Assembly: GCA_965372515.1 (NCBI GenBank)
Contig: CBDVCO010000001.1
Location: 686-64,685 of the forward strand
Source: an uncultured bacterium
GTDB lineage: Bacteria; Desulfobacterota; GWC2-55-46; JAJCZF01
Direction: 5' to 3'
Length of the DNA stretch: 64,000 nt
Program-made: the position numbers and the translations under genes
Notes under the pieces: model-generated
What the model saw: the letters and a program-made list of their open reading frames with translations, nothing else
Database searches by the model: none
Told to the model about the DNA's origin: nothing
Shown here: positions 2,265 through 33,811 of the stretch, in pieces
How positions within the stretch are numbered: the first letter of the stretch is position 1
Layout of the letters: every line of letters starts with the position of its first letter

Positions 2265-3122
2265 TTACAGATATTTTCCAAAGATAAGGTCCACCTTCTC
2301 TCTGGTCTCTTTTCCTATGGTCGAGGGGTCGGTCACAACGGCATACTTCATGGCCTCGGAGCAGGAGCACGCTCTGGGTGCTTCGAGCTTCCCGACCGCC
2401 CCCTTTATAATATCCTTTGAAACGGTTACGTTCTTCTTTATGGTCTCGAGTATCATCTCCACGGTAACAGACTCCTCTGTCTCATGCCAGCAGTCGTAGT
2501 CCGTGCTCAAGGCGAGCGTGGCGTAGCAAATTTCTGCTTCTCTCGCTAGCTTTGCCTCGGGGATATTGGTCATCCCTATAACGCTTACGCCCCATGAGCG
2601 GTAGAGATTCGACTCGGCCCTTGTAGAGAACTGCGGCCCCTCGATGCATACGTATGTCCCGCCCTTGTGGATGGTCGCGCCTACACTCTTGCCAGCGTCA
2701 AAAAGCGCGCCGCTCAGATCGGCGCATACCGGGTCTGCGAACTCAACATGGCCTACGATGCCGGAGCCGAAAAATGTAGACTCCCTCGCTCTGGTCCGAT
2801 CTATAAACTGGTCGACCACGACGATATGGCCGGGCTCGATCTCCTCACGCATGCTTCCAACGGCCGAGACCGATATTATGCGCTCTACCCCGAGCTTCTT
2901 CATCCCGTAGATATTAGCGCGGTAGTTAAGCTCCGAAGGCATGAGCCTGTGCCCACGGCCGTGGCGGGGCAGAAATACCATATCTACGTCGCCGAGCTTT
3001 CCGGTTATATAGAGGTCGCTCGGAGGGCCGAAAGGTGTGTCGACCTTAACCTCACTAACGTCGGTAAGGCCCTCTATCTCATAGAGGCCGCTACCGCCTA
3101 TAACGCCTACAACTGTGCCCAT
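2265..3122 (-). CDS. mtnP: S-methyl-5'-thioadenosine phosphorylase.
   Basis: GVIGGSGLY N-terminus and the PNP/MTAP-family pattern throughout. Adjacent to the PfkB kinase, consistent with a salvage pair. Confidence 0.85.
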   Translation of the reverse strand: MGTVVGVIGGSGLYEIEGLTDVSEVKVDTPFGPPSDLYITGKLGDVDMVFLPRHGRGHRLMPSELNYRANIYGMKKLGVERIISVSAVGSMREEIEPGHIVVVDQFIDRTRARESTFFGSGIVGHVEFADPVCADLSGALFDAGKSVGATIHKGGTYVCIEGPQFSTRAESNLYRSWGVSVIGMTNIPEAKLAREAEICYATLALSTDYDCWHETEESVTVEMILETIKKNVTVSKDIIKGAVGKLEAPRACSCSEAMKYAVVTDPSTIGKETREKVDLIFGKYL

Positions 3123-4967: not shown

Positions 4968-5669
4968 ATGGGCAAAGAAAACAAGCTGGATTATCCGATA
5001 GAGCGCCACCTTACTCTACGTGAACGGATAGTGGAGTTCATTAAGGACGCCGTTATAAGCGGCTCCCTTAAGCCCGGCGAGCGCGTACCTGAAAGCGAAA
5101 TAGCAGAGCGCTTCGGCATCAGCAGGACCCCCATAAGAGAGGCCTTCCGCCAGCTGGAGAGCGAGGGCTTTTTGATAATGACCCCTCGAAAGGGCGCGGT
5201 GGTAAGCCCCATCACCGACAAGGACGTCCGCGAATTCTACGCCATAAAGAGCCTGCTCGAGGGCTATGCCGCTGAGAAGGCCTGCATGGAGCTAACCGAC
5301 AAGGAGATAAAGAAGCTAAAAGACCTGAACGCGGAGATGGAAAAGAGCCAGGAGAAGGGAAATGTTAAAAACTTCTTCAAGCTCGACAACCAGTTTCACG
5401 AGGTATTCATAAAGGGATGCAGGAACGAAAAGCTATGCGCCCTTATACACCAGCTCGTGGAGCAGTTTGAACGCTTCAGGATCACGGCGCTAAGCCTGCC
5501 GGGGAGGATGCAGAACTCGGTAATGCAGCACAAGGAGATAATCGAAGCTATTGAGGACAAAAAGACCGATCTCGTGGCAACGCTCGTCAGGGCGAACGCC
5601 GAGAGCAACTGTGAAGTCCTTGTTCGCGAACTCTTAAAGGAGAGCGCCGAAACTTCGGCCGACAAATAG
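4968..5669 (+). CDS. GntR-family transcriptional regulator (FadR/FCD-type C-terminal domain).
   Basis: N-terminal wHTH ESEIAERFGISRTPIREAF and a helical FCD-like C-terminus. Confidence 0.75.
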   Translation: MGKENKLDYPIERHLTLRERIVEFIKDAVISGSLKPGERVPESEIAERFGISRTPIREAFRQLESEGFLIMTPRKGAVVSPITDKDVREFYAIKSLLEGYAAEKACMELTDKEIKKLKDLNAEMEKSQEKGNVKNFFKLDNQFHEVFIKGCRNEKLCALIHQLVEQFERFRITALSLPGRMQNSVMQHKEIIEAIEDKKTDLVATLVRANAESNCEVLVRELLKESAETSADK

Positions 5670-5776
5670 AAGGGGGCAGCAAAGAAAGGTCCGCCACCCA
5701 GGACGGATATAGATCCATACTCAACTCAACCGCTCCAAATCTTTCAACCCCCTCCTGCCAGAGGACAAAAAAATCC

Positions 5777-8962: not shown

Positions 8963-9463
8963 ATGAAACTGGATCAGCATTCAAAGATGCTTCGCATATA
9001 TATAGGCGAGGACGACAAGTGCGAGGATCGCCCGCTCCACGAGGTGATAGTGAAGAAGGCCAGAGAGGCGGGCATGGCCGGAGCGACCGTATTTCGCGCA
9101 TTAGGGGGCTTCGGCGCCAACAGCCGCGTGCGCTCATCCGGCTTGCTTGGGCTCTCAAGAGACCTCCCGATAATAGTAGTGCTGGTAGATACCCCCGAAC
9201 GCATTGAGTCCTTTGTCCCGACTCTCGAAGAACTCATCCAGGACGGACTTGTCACTATAGAGGATATAGAGGTCGTCCTCTACCGCTCGGCCTCCATGAA
9301 CAGACTTGAAGAGGGCACTGAAGAAGAAAAGGACGCGGAAATAGAACAGGTGAAGGAAGAGATGAAAGATGAGATCAAGGAGACCATTAAGGAAGAGATC
9401 AAAGAAGAGATCATAGAGGCGGTTATTGACGCGGCAAAAGAAGAGATAGAAGAAGATTTTTAA
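8963..9463 (+). CDS. DUF190 (PII-like fold, COG1993) protein with an acidic Glu/Lys-rich repetitive C-terminal tail.
   Basis: LRIYIGEDDK...PLHEVIVKKAREAGMAGATVFRALGGFG matches the DUF190 signature. The EEIKEEI-type tail is encoded by GAAGAGAT-like DNA repeats. Confidence 0.6.
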   Translation: MKLDQHSKMLRIYIGEDDKCEDRPLHEVIVKKAREAGMAGATVFRALGGFGANSRVRSSGLLGLSRDLPIIVVLVDTPERIESFVPTLEELIQDGLVTIEDIEVVLYRSASMNRLEEGTEEEKDAEIEQVKEEMKDEIKETIKEEIKEEIIEAVIDAAKEEIEEDF

Positions 9464-22291: not shown

Positions 22292-22347
22292 CTAAATTCA
22301 CACTCCTATTATTTAAAGCACCTCTAAAAATTAGATATTTTTTCCGA

Positions 22348-22454
22348 GGACGCTCGCGCCGTATTCGAGGCGGAATGAAAATAAAAAGCAAAGCATATAT
22401 GAACATATGTGAGCATTTTTATTTTTATTCCAACAAAGGACGCTCGCGTCGTAA
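22348..22454. repeat. 17-bp direct repeats AGGACGCTCGCG(C/T)CGTA flanking an AT-rich 73-bp segment in the unusually long (184 bp) hslV-hslU spacer.
   Basis: Copies at 22348-22364 and 22438-22454, read directly from the sequence. Confidence 0.6.
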
Positions 22455-22475
22455 AATCGGGAAAAAGAGCAATTT

Positions 22476-23031: not shown

Positions 23032-24000
23032 CTACTTGGTGCCTTTAGCCCGCGGATGGCCTTTATCATAACTCTCCATCAACCCCTCTATGCTGACCTT
23101 TGTATACCTCTGGGTGGTCGAGAGGTTCTTGTGTCCGAGCAGTTCCTGAATCGCCCTTAGATCGAGACCCGCGTCCAGGAGGTGCGTGGCGAAAGTGTGC
23201 CTCAGTGAATGCGGCGTAGGGCGCTTATCTATATTACTCTTAGAGACATACTTCTTGACAATCCTCTGGACAGTTCTGGTCGTAAGCCTGCTCCCGGCCC
23301 TTCCGTAAAAGAGCGGGGCTCTACCTTTGGCCGTGACATTACCATTGACAAAAGCCGTGACATTACCCTTGACAAAAACCCTGTCGACCCAGTCATTATA
23401 CGCGCCAATGGCGCCAAGGGCATGCGAGCCCATATAGGCGATACGCTCAACGCCCCCTTTGCCCATCACCCTTAAAGTGCCGCGCTTAAAATCCAGATCC
23501 GCACGGTTCAGGGCGACGAGTTCGCTTACCCTCACTCCCGCCGAGTATAAAAGCTCAAGTATTGCGCGGTCCCTAAGAAGCATCCCGAGCTTTGCCGGAT
23601 TAGTTGCGCCACGAGTAGTAACCCCGCTATCCGGGGACGTTACAAGCTCCTTGGCCTCGTCAACGGTAAGTACCGTCGGCAGGAACTTACCGACCTTCGG
23701 AACGGGCACAAACTCGGCGGGGCTCTTCTTAAGCTCCCCCTTTTTTAAAAGAAATGTATAAAAACTCCTTATGGAAGAGAGCTTTCTGGCTATGCTCGAT
23801 CTCTTAAGACGGCCATGAAGGCTTGCTATATAGTCCTTTACCTGCGCCTCGCCTACGCCTTTAAGAGTAACTGCGGCCCCAATATCCTTAAGAAAAGCCA
23901 CGAATTCAAGAAGGTCTCTCTTATAAGCGGCCCTGGTATGTACTGAGGCGTTTCGCTCGACGTCAAGGTAAATGTCGAATCTCTCTATAGCGCTTTTCAA
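23032..24000 (-). CDS. xerC: Tyrosine site-specific recombinase XerC/XerD (chromosome dimer resolution).
   Basis: N-terminal SAM-like domain, R..HxxR..Y catalytic pattern (HSLRHTFATHLL, RYT). Conserved xerC-hslV-hslU synteny. Confidence 0.8.
   Translation of the reverse strand: MKSAIERFDIYLDVERNASVHTRAAYKRDLLEFVAFLKDIGAAVTLKGVGEAQVKDYIASLHGRLKRSSIARKLSSIRSFYTFLLKKGELKKSPAEFVPVPKVGKFLPTVLTVDEAKELVTSPDSGVTTRGATNPAKLGMLLRDRAILELLYSAGVRVSELVALNRADLDFKRGTLRVMGKGGVERIAYMGSHALGAIGAYNDWVDRVFVKGNVTAFVNGNVTAKGRAPLFYGRAGSRLTTRTVQRIVKKYVSKSNIDKRPTPHSLRHTFATHLLDAGLDLRAIQELLGHKNLSTTQRYTKVSIEGLMESYDKGHPRAKGTK
23330..23377. repeat. Perfect-frame 24-bp tandem duplication (1 mismatch) inside xerC, giving a duplicated GNVTA peptide.
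   Basis: gccgtgacattacc(a/c)ttgacaaaa occurs twice, head to tail. Confidence 0.8.
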
Positions 24001-24063: not shown

Positions 24064-24819
24064 TCAGCGAATGATATCCAAGAACCGCCTGAACCTGATC
24101 GTCGCCTTCACGCTATCCCATGACCAGTATATTATAAGCGCCTTTCCTTTGAGCTCCGAGACAGGCACAGTGATATTCGCCGGATTTTCAAGCCCCCAGT
24201 AGCGGCTGTCATAACTGTTGTCCCTGTTGTCGCCCATAACAAAGACCCTTCCCTCCGGGATGATATAAGGTCCGAAATCCCTTATAATGCTCGACCCCCT
24301 GACATATGGACCCTTAAAGACCGCCTGAGGAGTAATTGCCACTTCACCATTAATATATACTACATCTCTCTTGATCTGGATCGTATCATTAGCGACGGCG
24401 ACTACCCTCTTTATGTAATCCTTGCTCCTGTCGTTAGGATAGCGAAAAACAACTATGTCTCCCCTCTTGACACTACCCCAGATATTATAGAGCTTTGTCT
24501 CAAAGAACGGGATCCTCACGCCAAAGAGCTTGATCATCGCCGGGCGCGGTACCTGCAGGCCGTAAGAGAATTTATTGACCAGAAGGTGATCGCCCACCAG
24601 GAGCGTGTCCTCCATGGAGCTTGAGGGTATCTTAAATGCCTGCAAGACAAAGGTACGTATAAAGAGGGCGAGGATAATGGCTATGATTATAGCCTCGATG
24701 GTCTCCCTTGCCTGCCCCTTCTTTCGCTTCTTACCTTGACTGCTACCCTGACGGCTACCCAGTTCCTCTTCCCCTTTAGAGCCGCCGCCTCCCCCTTTTA
24801 ATATATCGAATATACTCAT
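24064..24819 (-). CDS. lepB: Signal peptidase I.
   Basis: SSSMEDTL catalytic-Ser box and the GDNRDNSYDSRYWG box E. Confidence 0.85.
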   Translation of the reverse strand: MSIFDILKGGGGGSKGEEELGSRQGSSQGKKRKKGQARETIEAIIIAIILALFIRTFVLQAFKIPSSSMEDTLLVGDHLLVNKFSYGLQVPRPAMIKLFGVRIPFFETKLYNIWGSVKRGDIVVFRYPNDRSKDYIKRVVAVANDTIQIKRDVVYINGEVAITPQAVFKGPYVRGSSIIRDFGPYIIPEGRVFVMGDNRDNSYDSRYWGLENPANITVPVSELKGKALIIYWSWDSVKATIRFRRFLDIIR

Positions 24820-25043
24820 ATATTTTCTTGTTACCTTTGGTGGATCTAATTAAAACCGAATCAATAAATTTATTCCTTTAAAGGTCTAAAGTCAAGTACG
24901 CTTACAGGTATTTTACCCCTGCCCGGCGGGACCGGCCTTCTGTATCGTAGCCTATCTTTAAATAACTACGCCGCGTACTGAGGCGGTCCGTATGCTATGG
25001 ATCTTTGCCGCGCGGTATAATACCGGGCTGGCCCGGCAAAAGG

Positions 25044-26843
25044 TCAATCGATCTTCAAGACCGCGAGGAATGCCTCCTGGGGAAGCTCCACATTGCCCAC
25101 CCGCTTCATCCGTTTCTTACCCTCTTTTTGCTTTTCAAGGAGCTTCCTCTTTCTCGTTATGTCGCCTCCGTAGCACTTGGCGGTCACGTTCTTCCTAAGC
25201 GCCCTTATGCGCTCACTCGCTATGACCCTCGACCCTATAGAGGCCTGGATGGCGACGTCGAACATCTGCCTCTGTATGATCTCCTTCATCTTAACGGCGA
25301 TCTCTTTGCCCCTCATATATGCCTTCTCCTTGGGAACTATAAGGCTGAGCGCGTCCACGGGGTCGCCGTTCAGGAGTATATCGAGCTTTACGAGATCAGA
25401 CTCCCTGTAATCGAGATACTCATAATCCATGGAGGCGTAACCCCTGGTCACGGTCTTAAGGCGGTCGTAAAAGTCCATCACCACCTCATTGAGCGGTATC
25501 TCATAGGTGAGCATCACGCGCTCCTCGCTAAGATAGTTTATATCCCTCTGCACCCCCCTTCGCGCTTCGCACAGAGTGATAACCGGCCCCACGTACTCGC
25601 TTGGCAAGTGGAGGGTTGCGAGGATAAAGGGCTCTTCGATCTTGTCTATATAGTTAGCCGCCGGAAGCTCCGATGGGTTATGGACCATCACCACCTCATT
25701 ATCCTGCTTTGTAACCTTATACACAACTGTCGGCGCGGTCGTAATGAGCGACAGGTCGTATTCGCGCTCCAAACGCTCCTGGATTATCTCCATATGAAAG
25801 AGGCCGAGAAAACCGCACCTGAAGCCGAAGCCGAGCGCCAGAGATGTCTCGGGCTCGAAGGTAAAGGAGGAGTCGTTAAGCCGCAACTTCTTTACCGCCT
25901 CCTTCAGGTTCTCATACTGCACGGAATCTGTCGGATAGAGCCCGCTAAAGACCATGGGCATGATCTCCTTGTAGCCCGGCAGCGGCTCGGCCGCGGGGTT
26001 ATCGGCCAGGGTTATCGTATCCCCGACACTCGTGTCGCGCACTTCCTTTATCGCCGCCGTGAAAAACCCGACCTCTCCTACTGAGAGCTCCTTAACCTCG
26101 GTAGCGCCCGGAGAAAAGACCCCGACACTGTCCACGTCAAAGCTCTTGCCCGTAGAAAAGAATTTTATTCTTTGGCCCCTCTTTATCTTTCCGTCGAAGA
26201 CCCTGATCTGTACGACGACCCCCTGATAAGGGTCGTACCATGAATCGAATGCAAGGGCCTTCAATGGCGCGTCCGGGTCGCCTTCGGGAGGGGGTATGCG
26301 CTCGACTATCGCCTCAAGTACATCTTCAATACCTATGCCTTTCTTCGCGCTCGTGAGTACCGCGCTCTCGGCGTCAAGGGCCAAAAGCTCCTCTATCTCG
26401 CCCTTTACCCGTTCCGGATCGGCACTCGGCAGGTCGATCTTATTAAGTACGGGAAAGATCTCCAACCCTACGTCCATCGCCGTATACAGGTGCGCGAGAG
26501 TCTGGGCCTCGACCCCCTGAGAGGCGTCGACGACCAGGACCGCCCCCTCGCAGGCCGATAGAGAACGGCTGACTTCGTAGCTGAAATCAACATGGCCCGG
26601 CGTGTCTATTAGATTTAAGACATACTCCTGACCGTCTCTCGCCTTATAGCTAAGCCTCGCGGTCTGCGCCTTGATCGTAACGCCGCGTTCTCTTTCCAGG
26701 TCCATCTTGTCCATGAACTGGTCGGTCTTTTCGCGATCACTGAGCGCCCCGGTCAATTCCAGGATCCTGTCCGAAAGCGTTGACTTGCCGTGGTCTATAT
26801 GGGCGATTATGGAAAAGTTGCGTATAAGTTTGCTCTGAGCCAT
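25044..26843 (-). CDS. lepA: Translation elongation factor 4 (LepA).
   Basis: [18 protein letters not shown]-domain and LepA C-terminal domain. Start at MAQSK, not the upstream ORF-track Met. Confidence 0.9.
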
Positions 26844-26907
26844 TTCTTTTGCCTTTAGGGGATAATTTAATAGATAAGTATATGGAACTAACCGCACTTT
26901 GTCAAAA

Positions 26908-27246
26908 GAAACCCCGCCAGCGGGGTTTTATACCACGCAACATTACGCACATAACATACGGACCGCCGCACTACGCGGCAACCCCATCTAAAGATCGCCT
27001 GGAGTATAAAAAGAAACCCCGCCAGTCCGCCGGACCAGTCCGGTCTTATACCACGCAACATTACGCACATAACATACGGACCGCCGCACTACGCGGCAAA
27101 GCCATCTAAAGATCGCCTAGAGTATAAAAAGAAACCCCGCCAGCCCGCCGGACCAGTCCGGTTTAATGCCACGCAACATTACGCCCATAGCATACGGCCC
27201 GCGACACTACGCGGCAAAGTCATTTAAAGATTGCCCGGGGTATAGA
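26908..27246. repeat. Three head-to-tail copies of a 105-118-bp unit, each with two hairpins and ending in TATAAAAAG.
   Basis: Copy boundaries at 26908, 27013, 27131. The core CCACGCAACATTACGCACATAACATACGGACCGCCGCACTACGCGGCAA is conserved. The 5' hairpin is AAACCCCGCcagGCGGGGTTT in copy 1 and CCGGACcaGTCCGG-containing in copies 2 and 3. Confidence 0.75.
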
Positions 27247-27281
27247 TTGAAGCCATCCGGTTTTTATGTTATTTCATATCA

Positions 27282-29390
27282 ATGACCTCGATGCCTGACA
27301 AGTACAACGCCCCCGACATTATCAAGGCGCTCTTTATCGTCATAGTGACATTTGTCGTATATATCCGGGCCATCCATGGCGGTTTTATATGGGACGATCA
27401 GACTTTTATCGTAGAGAACAGGTTCCTCCTCGACCTTGACGGGCTTTGGTCCATCTGGTTCACCACCGACCTCTCACACCAGTACTACCCGCTTGCTTCA
27501 ACCATCTTCTGGATAGAACGCCACATATTCGGCCTGAATCCAATTGGATATCACACTTTAAATATCGCCCTTCACTCTATAAACGCCCTGCTCGTTTGGG
27601 TCGCATGCCGAAGGCTAAAGCTTGGCGGGGCCTACGCTATCGCTCTGATCTTCTCACTCCACCCGGTGCACATAGACAGCGTGGCCTTTGTAAATGAAAT
27701 GAAGAACCTCGTCTCAGGGCTCTTCTACCTCTTGGCGCTCTTAAGCTTCCTCACCTTTGAAGAGAAAGGCTCAAAACGCTGGTACGCGCTCACGCTCCTT
27801 GCATTCGTATTAGCGCTTCTCAGTAAGACCGTCGCCGGCACCCTGCCGGCCGCGCTCTTGATAATACGCTGGATGAGACATAAAGATATAGGCCCCGGCT
27901 ACATCCTGAGGCTTGTACCGTTCTTTATTATAGCCGCCGCCTTCGCCGTTGTGACAATAGCCGTTGAGGTGGAAAATACCGGAGTGGATATCGGCATCAG
28001 CTTTGCACAGAGGCTGCTTGTAGCAGGGCGCGCCTCCTGGTTCTACGCGACGAAGCTTATATATCCAATGAAGCTCTCATTTATCTACCCGCGCTTTACT
28101 CCCGATATCACGAGCTTAACCCAATGGGCCTACCCGCTCGGGGTCGTGGCCCTAACGCTTCTACTCTTTGGCTTAAGAAAGAGGCTCACTCGCGCGCCTG
28201 TGGCCGCCGTAGCCTTTTTTCTCGTTACCATCTTCCCGGCCCTGGGCTTTGTCGACATAAACTTCTTTAACTACTCTTACGTAGCCGACCACTTCCAGTA
28301 TCTGGCCAGCCTTGCGCTCATAGCGCTCGCAGTCGGTGTTATTTGCCGCCTGATCAAAAACCTGCCAGGGCCCGTAGCTTACATAACGGCAATCTCAATA
28401 GTCTTTATCCTTGGAGTGCTTACCTTGAGCCGCTTAAGCGTGACCACGAACCACGAATTGCTCTGGAGGGATACCATAAAAAAGAACCCCGCGTCATGGG
28501 CGGCACACAACAATTTCGGCAATCTCCTCTTCGCCCAAAAACGCATACCGGAATCTATAAAAGAGTTTCAAATGTCGATCAGCATAAACCCCTACAGTGA
28601 GAAAGCCAGAGGCAACCTCGCTAACGCCTTGACCGAGACCGGCCGCTTTGATGAAGCGATAGACCAGTACGAAGCGGCGCTAAGGATAACCCCGGACAAT
28701 CCGCTCACGCTTATTAATATCGGCATAAATTACACACTGCAAAACAAATTCGAAGAGGCCGTCCGGAAATTCGAGCGCTCCATAGAGCTAAACCCTTATG
28801 ATTCATACGCTTTTTATAACTACGCACTGGCGCTTACGGGGCTAAATAGAGCAATTGATGCTGAGCGCGCCTATCTAAAGGCCATAGAGCTAAACCCCGC
28901 GGATACGGATTCAAGAAATAACCTGGCCAATATATACATGGACAAAAATGACCTTGACCGGGCTATGGCGCTCTACACTGAGGTGATAGAACTGCTCCCG
29001 ACCCACGCCCGGGCCAATAATAACCTCGGCATTATCATGAGCATAAGAAAAGAATACGAATTAAGCCTCTCCTACTTTGAGGTGGCCATAAAAGCTGACC
29101 CGGAATATGCCGATGCCCATTATAACTTCGCGATAACGCTTGAAGATATCGGCAGGCATAAAGAGGCCCTGGAAAAATACCAGGCGGTCTTAAGGCTTGA
29201 ACCGGACCACGCTGAAACAAATAATAATATCGGCTCCATCCTCTTAAAAGAGGGCGATCACCAGGCAGCGAAAGGATATTTTCAACAAGCGCTAAGGCTA
29301 GACCCGTCAAGCCCGATATACAAAAAGAACCTGGAGATCGCAGATAAACTCACCAGGGGCGACAGGGCCCGCGGCCTTAAAAGGCATTAA
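27282..29390 (+). CDS. TMTC/PMT-like GT-C glycosyltransferase-fold membrane domain (DUF1736-like) fused to C-terminal TPR repeats, 702 aa.
   Basis: About 11 TM N-domain with a loop-1 acidic motif (GGFIWDDQTF), then at least 8 TPR repeats. Paralogue of 41417..43525. Confidence 0.6.
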   Translation: MTSMPDKYNAPDIIKALFIVIVTFVVYIRAIHGGFIWDDQTFIVENRFLLDLDGLWSIWFTTDLSHQYYPLASTIFWIERHIFGLNPIGYHTLNIALHSINALLVWVACRRLKLGGAYAIALIFSLHPVHIDSVAFVNEMKNLVSGLFYLLALLSFLTFEEKGSKRWYALTLLAFVLALLSKTVAGTLPAALLIIRWMRHKDIGPGYILRLVPFFIIAAAFAVVTIAVEVENTGVDIGISFAQRLLVAGRASWFYATKLIYPMKLSFIYPRFTPDITSLTQWAYPLGVVALTLLLFGLRKRLTRAPVAAVAFFLVTIFPALGFVDINFFNYSYVADHFQYLASLALIALAVGVICRLIKNLPGPVAYITAISIVFILGVLTLSRLSVTTNHELLWRDTIKKNPASWAAHNNFGNLLFAQKRIPESIKEFQMSISINPYSEKARGNLANALTETGRFDEAIDQYEAALRITPDNPLTLINIGINYTLQNKFEEAVRKFERSIELNPYDSYAFYNYALALTGLNRAIDAERAYLKAIELNPADTDSRNNLANIYMDKNDLDRAMALYTEVIELLPTHARANNNLGIIMSIRKEYELSLSYFEVAIKADPEYADAHYNFAITLEDIGRHKEALEKYQAVLRLEPDHAETNNNIGSILLKEGDHQAAKGYFQQALRLDPSSPIYKKNLEIADKLTRGDRARGLKRH

Positions 29391-32777: not shown

Positions 32778-33719
32778 ATGAAAAAGCTACTTACTTTTGC
32801 AGTAGGTCTCGGCCTCGTCTTCGCCGTAGCCAGCACAGCGTCAGCCATTACAAATCCTACAGACTACTCTGATGGCGACATAGCTAACGGTATTGTAAAC
32901 TCAAGGCACAACCTTGGTTCAACAGGCGTTCACTTCAGGGCCGACAACACGAACTCATCAACCGACACTGCTTCAGGCGGCGGCGGCACGAGTGAGGTCT
33001 GTATCTTCTGTCACACTCCTCACCACGGTTCAACCAACGCTCCGTTGTGGAACAAAGGCTCACAGTCTACAGCTAACTACACAACCTACGGTACAACGGT
33101 TGGCGGAACAAGCGCCGACACCACTCCTGGCGCCGCGACACTCGCGTGCTTGAGCTGCCACGATGGTGTTAACACCTTTGACACCATTGTCAACTGGCCT
33201 GGTAAGAGCGGTACGGGTACCAACGATAACGGCGGCGTGTCAACAGACATGGGCTGGTTATTCACCGAAGATGGTAACACCATGAGCGACTACATGACTT
33301 CAGGCAGGTTGAACCTCGGTACCGATCTACGTAATGACCACCCGGTATCCATAACCTACACTGAGGACAGAGCGTCACTCAGGCCTGTAAGCACTCAGAT
33401 CACCAGTGTAACCATGGAGAACGATGTGCTTACCGTTGTAGCGACCACATCAACATCAGCCACGACAACTGAGAACCTGTGGGCTGTAGGTGGTTACCTT
33501 GACGGAACCGCTTCCATTGACGGTATCCTCAGGAACGGTAAGGTCGAGTGTTCTTCATGCCACGACCCGCACTTCAAAAACCAGTCTTGGGATGAAGTCG
33601 CCGGTACATGGGGCGGTGGTAATGTCGTTGATGGTTCAGACGACATGGACGGTCTCTTCCTTAGAAGGGTCGGCGGTAACAGTCTCAGCGGTGTATGCAG
33701 AACCTGCCACAACAAGTAA
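32778..33719 (+). CDS. Secreted Thr/Gly-rich tetraheme c-type cytochrome of the doubled-CXXCH family.
   Basis: Sec signal ending ASA. Four CxxCH motifs (CIFCHTPHH, CLSCH, CSSCHDPH, CRTCH) with the SRHNL...C.FCHTPH pattern. Poly-Thr/Gly linkers. AAGGAG SD. Confidence 0.65.
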   Translation: MKKLLTFAVGLGLVFAVASTASAITNPTDYSDGDIANGIVNSRHNLGSTGVHFRADNTNSSTDTASGGGGTSEVCIFCHTPHHGSTNAPLWNKGSQSTANYTTYGTTVGGTSADTTPGAATLACLSCHDGVNTFDTIVNWPGKSGTGTNDNGGVSTDMGWLFTEDGNTMSDYMTSGRLNLGTDLRNDHPVSITYTEDRASLRPVSTQITSVTMENDVLTVVATTSTSATTTENLWAVGGYLDGTASIDGILRNGKVECSSCHDPHFKNQSWDEVAGTWGGGNVVDGSDDMDGLFLRRVGGNSLSGVCRTCHNK

Positions 33720-33772: not shown

Positions 33773-33811
33773 AAAAAAAAGACGGGCCGTTCTTCGGCCC
33801 GTCTTTTTTTT
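33773..33811. terminator. Strong bidirectional intrinsic terminator.
   Basis: A8-GACGGGCCG-ttctt-CGGCCCGTC-T8, preceded by a second hairpin at 33743-33770. Confidence 0.8.

Follow-up and report, generated by a model that had tools for sequence, protein, structure and literature searches.

The window analysed here is a stretch of 64,000 nucleotides (nt) from an uncultured bacterium (positions 686–64,685 of contig CBDVCO010000001.1), and the element in question is a triple tandem repeat in the spacer between lepA and a divergent TMTC-like gene. The host lineage belongs to the uncultured Thermodesulfobacteriota ("Deltaproteobacteria"). lepA, the gene for elongation factor 4 (EF4), is on the minus strand at positions 25044–26843 and displays the Pfam motifs LepA_C and GTP_EFTU. 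The TMTC-like gene (Pfam motifs PMT_2 and TPR) is on the plus strand at positions 27282–29390. Pfam assignments show the minus-strand gene order to be lepA, lepB (24064–24819), xerC, hslV and hslU. The core promoter of lepA, TTGACA-17-TATACT, is at positions 26877–26905 of the minus strand and has been kept in relatives regardless of whether they have the repeat. The repeat array starts at its −35 box.

The repeat array and an inverted copy beyond lepA

Tandem Repeats Finder shows a single array at positions 26924–27244 with a period of 118 bp, 2.7 copies, 90% matches and a score of 523. This is by far the strongest repeat of the 64-kb window, the runner-up having a score of 89. When placed in register by a MAFFT alignment, the array consists of three head-to-tail units encompassing positions 26904–27244, with a mean column identity of 91%. 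Unit 1 (26904–27008, 105 bp) adjoins the lepA promoter and is without a 13-bp duplication; nhmmer gives it 97.8 bits. Unit 2 (27009–27126, 118 bp) has a 96% identity to unit 1, and unit 3 (27127–27244, 118 bp) an 87% identity to units 1 and 2. Unit 3 abuts the −35-like TTGAAG of the TMTC-like gene. All three are assigned to the plus strand, which is their T-sense, i.e. the strand on which the T-rich tail comes after the hairpin.

A preliminary description of this DNA had proposed a triple tandem repeat with hairpins, and this is borne out by the units of 105, 118 and 118 bp that are 87%–96% identical. The placement in the lepA/TMTC-like spacer also stands, but the start of the array is now set at position 26904, where it overlaps 2 nt of the lepA −35 box. 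The 13-bp indel reported between copies is confirmed as well, and represents a local duplication of CCAGTCCG.

The absence or presence of this duplication determines the hairpin sequence: unit 1 has CCCCGC-CA-GCGGGG, and units 2 and 3 have CCGGAC-CA-GTCCGG. The unit 1 hairpin, AAACCCCGC-CA-GCGGGGTTT, is at positions 26909–26928, and its stem ACCCCGC-CA-GCGGGGT at 26911–26926. It can be assigned to either strand and looks like a terminator in both directions, because of TTTTATAC on its plus strand and TTTCTTTT on its minus strand. The hairpins of unit 2 (27030–27043, tail TCTTATAC) and unit 3 (27148–27161, tail TTTAATGC) are on the plus strand.

A second hairpin, GCCGC-ACTAC-GCGGC, is found in units 1 and 2 and in a shifted form, CGCGACACTACGCG, in unit 3. 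The TATAAAAAG sequence, previously taken for a 3′ box of each unit, occurs solely at the two internal unit boundaries; it is merely the unit junction (TATA plus the A-tract beside the lepA −35). Downstream of the array, a half-hairpin-like fragment plus tail, CCATCCGGTTTTTATG, is present on the plus strand at positions 27253–27268. Its TTTTTATGTTA part is probably an ancestral promoter-region sequence, because relatives without the array have it too.

Exactly one further copy was found in the window by blastn and nhmmer searches with the units. This fourth, diverged copy (copy 4) is at positions 24941–25040 of the minus strand (nhmmer 90.3 bits, E-value = 4e-26) and has a 73%–79% identity to units 1–3. 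It is inverted relative to the array and resides in the 224-bp lepA–lepB spacer, between the lepA stop codon and a promoter-like site of lepB (TTGACT-17-TAAATT, positions 24867–24895 of the minus strand) that is conserved in relatives. The hairpin of copy 4 (25023–25036, minus strand) begins 7 nt past the lepA stop codon; it reads CCGGGC-CA-GCCCGG in the lepA sense, a compensatory variant, and has the tail TATTATAC. It is a candidate lepA terminator. On the other side, the upstream hairpin abuts the −35 box of the lepA promoter. lepA is bracketed by inverted copies whose hairpin ends are toward the gene.

Protein coding by the array is ruled out. The period of 118 bp is not a multiple of 3 and the open reading frames (ORFs) of the array therefore cannot be conserved coding frames; in addition, the short ORFs have no conserved counterparts in copy 4. 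This agrees with the earlier view that the ORFs of the array are artefacts.

Copies in related genomes and the hairpin module

The best species representative has an 80% LepA identity to the window. Closer LepA proteins were found in a large protein collection, and their contigs are all syntenic with the window. These loci were scanned with nhmmer and with covariance models. Locus L081 (97% LepA identity) has two tandem copies upstream of lepA (297–416 and 405–533) and two inverted tandem copies in the lepA–lepB spacer (2391–2500 and 2501–2601). L083 (92%) has about 1.5 copies upstream (5600–5667, which is partial, and 5662–5774) and none in the lepA–lepB spacer. No copies were found at either site in L082, L084, L085, L095/L096, L086–L089 and L100 (92%–82%), the L095/L096 contigs being without the upstream flank. 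In repeat-free loci (L082, L084, L085, L086, L089 and L095) the upstream spacers are 127–255 bp and the lepA–lepB spacers 23–97 bp. The divergent spacer of the repeat-free 90%–92% relatives is 127 bp, and their two −35 boxes are ~31 bp apart.

The units are head-to-tail and their number differs between syntenic loci of 90%–97% LepA identity: 3, 2, ~1.5 and 0 upstream, and 1, 2, 0 and 0 downstream. Copy number at fixed sites thus varies in the manner of a minisatellite, or variable number tandem repeat (VNTR). The copies fall into an upstream and a downstream subfamily, each orthologous between the window and L081; e.g. copy 4 has an 87% identity to the copy termed L081c. This implies that both sites were occupied in the common ancestor of the window and L081, and that tandem duplication came later or is ongoing. 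The diverged copy 4 beyond lepA, the orthologous copies in two relatives and a module in a third (described below) agree with the earlier suggestion of a maintained element, and not with a one-off slippage.

In L084, a 90% relative whose upstream site is empty, a lone hairpin CCCGGC-N12-GCCGGG followed by TTTTCTTT is present at positions 2965–3003, directly adjacent to the lepA −35 box. Some element hairpins have this stem sequence too, so that the array may have originated from an older palindrome at this place, or may have expanded into one.

The conserved core of the repeat is a 42-nt module. It consists of a 6–7-bp G+C-rich hairpin, GCCNNNC-CA/AG-GNNNGGT, followed by a T-rich tail and CGCGC (TTTTATAYCGCGCAAC) on one strand. 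In the clade of the window, the module is joined to a body of ~70 nt, which gives the unit of 105–118 bp. L001, a contig of the metagenome-assembled genome OFTM14 with an 80% LepA identity, displays a 29-nt inverted repeat that flanks lepA. An alignment shows that four L001 modules share the layout G-CCNNNC-(CA/AG)-GNNNGG-T-TTTATWTCGCG with the window modules, the L001 stems being CCACAC/GTGTGG. A covariance model (R2) that had been built without L001 yielded the two lepA-flanking L001 modules as its top two matches in 132 kb from 14 loci (21.3 and 21.1 bits; the E-value of ~5e-4 is rough). Each has the expected orientation, and one of the two overlaps the lepA stop codon. The 42-nt module is therefore older than the 105–118-bp unit. 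Its distribution is patchy: modules are present at 100, 97, 92 and 80% LepA identity and absent at 92, 90 and 82%–83%. A covariance model scan did not find modules in the more distant LepA loci L098, L100, L002–L006, L018 and L048.

The L001 contig shows some additional features. About 1 kb upstream of lepA (positions 1–1060) has no wholly contained ORF longer than 67 amino acids; longer reverse-strand ORFs begin there and run into lepA. This region contains hairpin modules in both orientations (325–338 and 575–588). The contig stops inside a module just past lepA (2855–2911), where two hairpins are merely 27 nt apart. The lepA flanks of L001 gave no Rfam matches.

A covariation analysis, which the preliminary description had recommended, shows that the hairpin keeps its pairing by compensatory changes across 14 modules. 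Of the 98 cells of the 7-bp hairpin, 99% are paired. Changes on both sides are found at four of the seven pairs (19 cells). The covariation score is 0.60 vs 0.22 in shuffled alignments (0 of 500 reach 0.60), and at most 0.09 for slid partners. The outermost pair on the tail-bearing strand is G-U in nine modules, G-C in three and A-U in two; the other strand would give A-C in nine.

On the T-sense strand, all 14 modules have 3–7 T in the 8 nt past the stem. On the opposite strand there is mostly one T past the stem, the exceptions being unit 1 (seven, TTTCTTTT) and L081a (five). The T-sense corresponds to the lepA sense for the downstream copies and to the sense of the TMTC-like gene for the upstream array. 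A stricter terminator scan calls some of the modules only.

The remainder of the unit does not show comparable structure. The second hairpin (GCCGC...GCGGY), which the preliminary description had listed, is present in units 1 and 2 and shifted in unit 3 as stated above, but is rejected as a supported structure: it is 84% paired, has no compensatory change and is broken in L083b. RNAalifold, on either strand, retains only the terminal hairpin plus one invariant helix. RNA folds of whole units are not distinctive on either strand (z-scores of −0.6 to −2.6).

The lepA 4-fold sites allow a comparison of constraint. Between the window and L081, the elements are 82%–87% identical, the 4-fold sites 70.5% and nine other intergenic spacers 91%. 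For the window and L083, the values are 70%–77% for the elements and 51% for the 4-fold sites. The element evolves slower than synonymous sites and faster than promoter-bearing spacers, i.e. its constraint is intermediate. The constraint is concentrated in the hairpin and in the body blocks TCTTTAAAT, GCCGCGTA, CCGTATGYTATG and TGTTGCGCG.

All 14 modules, which come from four genomes, are beside lepA. None was found in ~210 kb of other sequence of these genomes and their relatives, i.e. neither in the 64-kb window nor in ~150 kb of the relatives' loci outside the lepA flanks. Searches of the rest of the window and of the relatives' loci thus yielded copy 4 and the copies in relatives, and none away from lepA. 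Shared descent explains in part why every module adjoins lepA. The core pattern GCCGCGTANTGNNGCGGNCCGTATGNTATG gave 0 matches in GTDB species representatives and JGI metagenomes. A looser pattern, which fits all nine full copies, gave five metagenome matches and one viral (IMG/VR) match; these are rejected as chance matches in high-G+C coding DNA without flanking similarity. A blastn search of the array against plasmid and phage collections gave no match.

No Rfam match at the gathering threshold was found in the whole window, L001, L081 or L083. Known RNA families were also considered with a permissive Rfam scan of the region, and this gave chance-level matches only (rsmX, Leu leader, sX5 and istR); the best of the sub-threshold matches is rsmX (16.1 bits, E-value = 1.7, threshold 56). 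A match to a known repetitive extragenic palindromic (REP) family, one of the outcomes the preliminary description had envisaged, was not found either. A literature search on comparable elements found nothing relevant.

Promoters and other features of the window

Both core promoters, that of lepA and that of the TMTC-like gene, are outside the array and are kept in relatives that are without it. The array is therefore not a reiterated core promoter; a reiterated promoter had been one of the earlier candidate explanations. A consensus scan found no passing sigma-70-like promoter in any unit on either strand.

No Shine-Dalgarno sequence precedes the TMTC-like gene (window positions 27247–27284), and the conserved promoter-like TTGAAG-17-TATTTC ends 6 nt before its ATG; the equivalent in L084 is TAAGTT, 6 nt before a GTG start. 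Because of this spacing and the lack of a Shine-Dalgarno sequence, the TMTC-like mRNA may be leaderless.

In repeat-free relatives (L082 7050–7075, L085 3525–3550 and L095 1725–1760), the lepB TTGACT box begins 2–25 nt past the lepA stop codon. The lepA–lepB gap of the 82%–83% relatives is merely 27 nt. lepB appears to have gained its own promoter within the clade.

Two types of known site were looked for in the element by direct reading and rejected. A dif/Xer site was considered, as xerC is nearby and CGCACATAACATA is present, but the 28-bp dif layout is at odds with the order and spacing of the arms. The integration host factor (IHF) consensus site WATCAANNNNTTR is absent.

Other features of the window are separate from the repeat. 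The hslV–hslU spacer (22292–22475, 184 nt, non-coding) is 94% identical to that of L081. This is higher than the ~87.5% of the long blastn alignments, which are mostly of coding region, and than the 70.5% of the lepA 4-fold sites. The spacer has an A/T-rich palindromic centre, CACATATGTTCATATATG, and a direct repeat, CG(A/G)CGCGAGCGTCCT, whose copies are ~95 nt apart; no Rfam match at the gathering threshold was found for it. Its conservation suggests a regulatory region or an RNA ahead of hslU. At positions 33781–33803, after a multihaem cytochrome gene (32778–33719), a perfect 9-bp G+C stem, GACGGGCCG-ttctt-CGGCCCGTC, is situated between A8 and T9 runs. This is a textbook bidirectional terminator and its sequence is unlike the lepA-flanking hairpins. 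A 24-bp unit is present twice with 95% identity at positions 23330–23377 (GCCGTGACATTACCATTGACAAAA), inside the xerC-like ORF 23032–24000. A degenerate 12/24-bp repeat at 9343–9417 (GAAGAGATGAAA), within the ORF 8963–9463, probably encodes a Glu/Lys-rich low-complexity stretch.

Interpretation and alternative explanations

The anatomy, distribution, copy-number variation, hairpin covariation and tail polarity of the repeat are observed features. It is well supported that the repeat represents a lineage-restricted family of non-coding intergenic repeats, similar to REPs and bacterial interspersed mosaic elements (BIMEs) or to minisatellites, whose core is a hairpin of the intrinsic-terminator type. 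Several known systems resemble it in part.

REPs and BIMEs of enterobacteria and pseudomonads, including REPINs (REP doublet hairpins), are likewise extragenic, with a G+C-rich imperfect palindrome kept by compensatory changes, and occur in both orientations and in clusters. REPs are often found at gene 3′ ends and can act as weak terminators or mRNA stabilisers. REPs themselves are 20–40 nt long and have tens to hundreds of dispersed copies, a GTAG-type head and a RAYT transposase; here a palindrome of 14–16 nt is inside a unit of 105–118 bp with a long non-palindromic body, copies are in direct tandem, and among the loci scanned the repeat is seen at the two flanks of one gene only. The GT[AG]G head of REPs was not found in the element: GTAG occurs solely in the loop of the second hairpin of some copies, and GTAC in others.

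Mycobacterial interspersed repetitive units (MIRU-VNTRs) and the BOX elements of Streptococcus pneumoniae are also direct tandem intergenic units, of ~45–110 bp, with strain-variable copy number, and BOX shares a reiterated middle module and stable hairpins. In contrast, MIRUs are within operons at ~40 loci and often contain short ORFs coupling translation, BOX has more than 100 copies per genome, and neither is limited to the flanks of one gene or built on a terminator-type hairpin.

The module resembles intrinsic (Rho-independent), partly bidirectional terminators in its G+C-rich stem followed by a T-rich tail, in the location of the downstream copies 0–14 nt past the lepA stop codon in three lineages, and, for unit 1, in the arrangement of A-tract, stem and T-tract. 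Unlike these terminators, it has short stems and several weak tails, is reiterated, is joined to a conserved 70-nt body and is set between divergent promoters. The Correia repeat enclosed elements (CREE) of Neisseria are non-coding repeats of ~100–150 bp that bring terminator and promoter activities to adjacent genes; their 26-nt terminal inverted repeats, TA target duplication, IHF site and copy number in the hundreds were not seen here.

The best explanation as a whole is a clade-specific hairpin repeat at the lepA flanks for which a termination or insulation activity is predicted. It is put forward tentatively, at somewhat less than an even chance. The triple repeat is most likely a REP/minisatellite-type element that is at most transcription-insulating, and not a proven RNA gene. 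Among the three earlier candidate explanations, the "REP/MITE-like" one (MITE, miniature inverted-repeat transposable element) comes closest; membership in a known REP family and a reiterated core promoter are not supported, and small RNA (sRNA) genes poorly so.

In the proposed process, copy number would expand and contract by unequal recombination or slippage, as in minisatellites, and the hairpin plus U-rich tail would act as a weak-to-moderate intrinsic terminator. The downstream module, which faces the lepA transcript, could end or attenuate this transcript before lepB, a gene with its own promoter. The upstream modules face away from lepA and would block only divergent or antisense transcription that crosses between the two promoters. 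Extra upstream units are probably near-neutral amplification (filler).

Several points weigh against this explanation. The stems of 6–7 bp are short, with folding free energies of −6 to −11 kcal/mol, and several tails (CAATATTA, TACTCTAC and TATTATAC) are poor for a terminator. The upstream array is in a strand-switch region where there is no obvious need for a terminator. The other intergenic spacers are more conserved between the window and L081 than the element is, and the conserved blocks in the ~70-nt body are not explained by a pure terminator/filler model. The restriction to lepA is seen in ~64 kb plus short contigs only; the 62 kb of copy-free sequence is compatible with a family of up to ~100–170 copies per genome.

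A functionally inert duplication, i.e. a neutral minisatellite derived from the local intergenic sequence and without influence on expression, is unlikely. It would account for the freely varying copy number, for relatives without the repeat that show no other changes at the locus, for a conservation below that of the other spacers, and for the 96% identity of units 1 and 2, which points to a recent duplication. However, a neutral sequence would not be expected to keep its hairpin by compensation across 14 modules, to persist on either side of lepA in a lineage whose synonymous divergence is saturated, or to exceed the identity of the 4-fold sites in both the L081 and L083 comparisons.

Tandem paralogous sRNA genes are quite unlikely. 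The lepA-sense strand of each unit would contain a short RNA gene, composed of a weak promoter (TTGCCG-17-TATGTT), a conserved single-stranded TGTTGCGYG "seed" and then the hairpin, as in the LhrC1-4 array of Listeria or PrrF1/PrrF2 of Pseudomonas. Those arrays are also near-identical head-to-tail intergenic units, of ~100–200 bp, that end in a hairpin. The most invariant non-hairpin block, TGTTGCGNG, is just 5′ of the hairpin on this strand; unit 1, L081b and L083b finish there in a hairpin plus TTTCTTTT; the RNAalifold helix CGCGUA/UGCGYG has G-U pairs on this strand only; and the weak rsmX-like match (16 bits, E-value = 1.7) is also on it. Copies that are more conserved than 4-fold sites are in accordance with such genes. 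The known sRNA units differ in that each has a recognizable promoter and a proper terminator, whereas the lepA-flanking units have no promoter that passes a scan, and the polarity of hairpin and U-tract is inconsistent with a complete gene in several copies. With 8 of 12 positions matched, the putative promoter does not pass the scan in any copy; three copies have ACGCCG as the −35, and L083b has lost the −10. No U-tract comes after the hairpin on the lepA-sense strand in units 2 and 3, copy 4 and L081c/d, and L083a is a half unit without the putative promoter. The opposite strand has the right polarity, but copy 4 would then be without a downstream terminator. Because a promoter or terminator is missing, the sRNA explanation fails in at least one copy on either strand. 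Further against it are the unremarkable folding z-scores, the confinement of covariation to the terminal hairpin and the lack of an Rfam family at the gathering score in the loci scanned.

There is a slim chance that the inverted modules bracketing lepA are a dedicated regulatory device for EF4, or a new site-specific mobile terminator cassette that targets the lepA flanks. As a device, the units might encode short RNAs, or an antisense transcript from the downstream copy might cross lepA and end at the upstream hairpins, tuning lepA expression. Either version, if true, would account for a module that flanks lepA on both sides in two lineages with saturated synonymous sites and was seen nowhere else among the loci examined.

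A regulator-binding platform is improbable. Here the body would carry protein sites that co-regulate the same-orientation downstream genes, i.e. the TMTC-like glycosyltransferase gene and the signal peptidase gene lepB. At both sites the body is indeed upstream of the core promoter of the gene and in the same orientation relative to it. The body also has sequence blocks that are conserved without covariation and a (G/C)CGTA(N)TG motif that recurs quasi-periodically at 11–16-nt spacing, and signal peptidase I and the PMT-family enzyme both act on exported proteins. Yet the distance from body to −35 is 2, 22 or 45 nt in different cases, copy number ranges from 0 to 3, and relatives with 90%–92% LepA identity do without the element. 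The downstream subfamily has not kept the periodic motif, and no regulator gene is adjacent, the neighbours being xerC, hslVU and cytochromes.

Gain by transposition of a non-autonomous mobile element (a MITE, a palindrome-associated transposable element or a REPIN-like element) that inserts site-specifically near lepA is similarly improbable: the patchy distribution (present at 100, 97, 92 and 80% LepA identity, absent at 92, 90, 90 and 82%–83%), the alignable filled and empty sites, the empty L084 site with its CCCGGC-N12-GCCGGG-TTTTCTTT hairpin, as if a unit sat inside an older palindrome, the copies in both orientations and the TATAC at the start of upstream units are set against terminal inverted repeats of no more than ~6 nt (ACCCCG), no target-site duplication between filled (window, L081, L083) and empty (L082, L084, L085, L095) sites, no copies elsewhere in 64 kb plus 150 kb or in plasmid, phage and viral collections, the higher identity of copy 4 to L081c (87%) than to the upstream units of the window (73%–79%), which indicates vertical descent and not recent jumps, and no transposase seen beside the element (none was specifically sought), with no Y1 transposase among 10 neighbouring proteins in Pfam.

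If the favoured explanation of a clade-specific hairpin repeat is right, the array adds to the known lineage-specific intergenic repeats and its interest is purely local. A possible use is as a VNTR marker for typing strains of this uncultured Thermodesulfobacteriota clade, and the array is an example of a terminator-type hairpin that has been copied, inverted and amplified around a housekeeping gene. The regulation of EF4 expression is poorly understood. An exclusive association with lepA that held genome-wide would matter more, as a sign of either a dedicated control or insulation of EF4 expression or a targeted mobile terminator.

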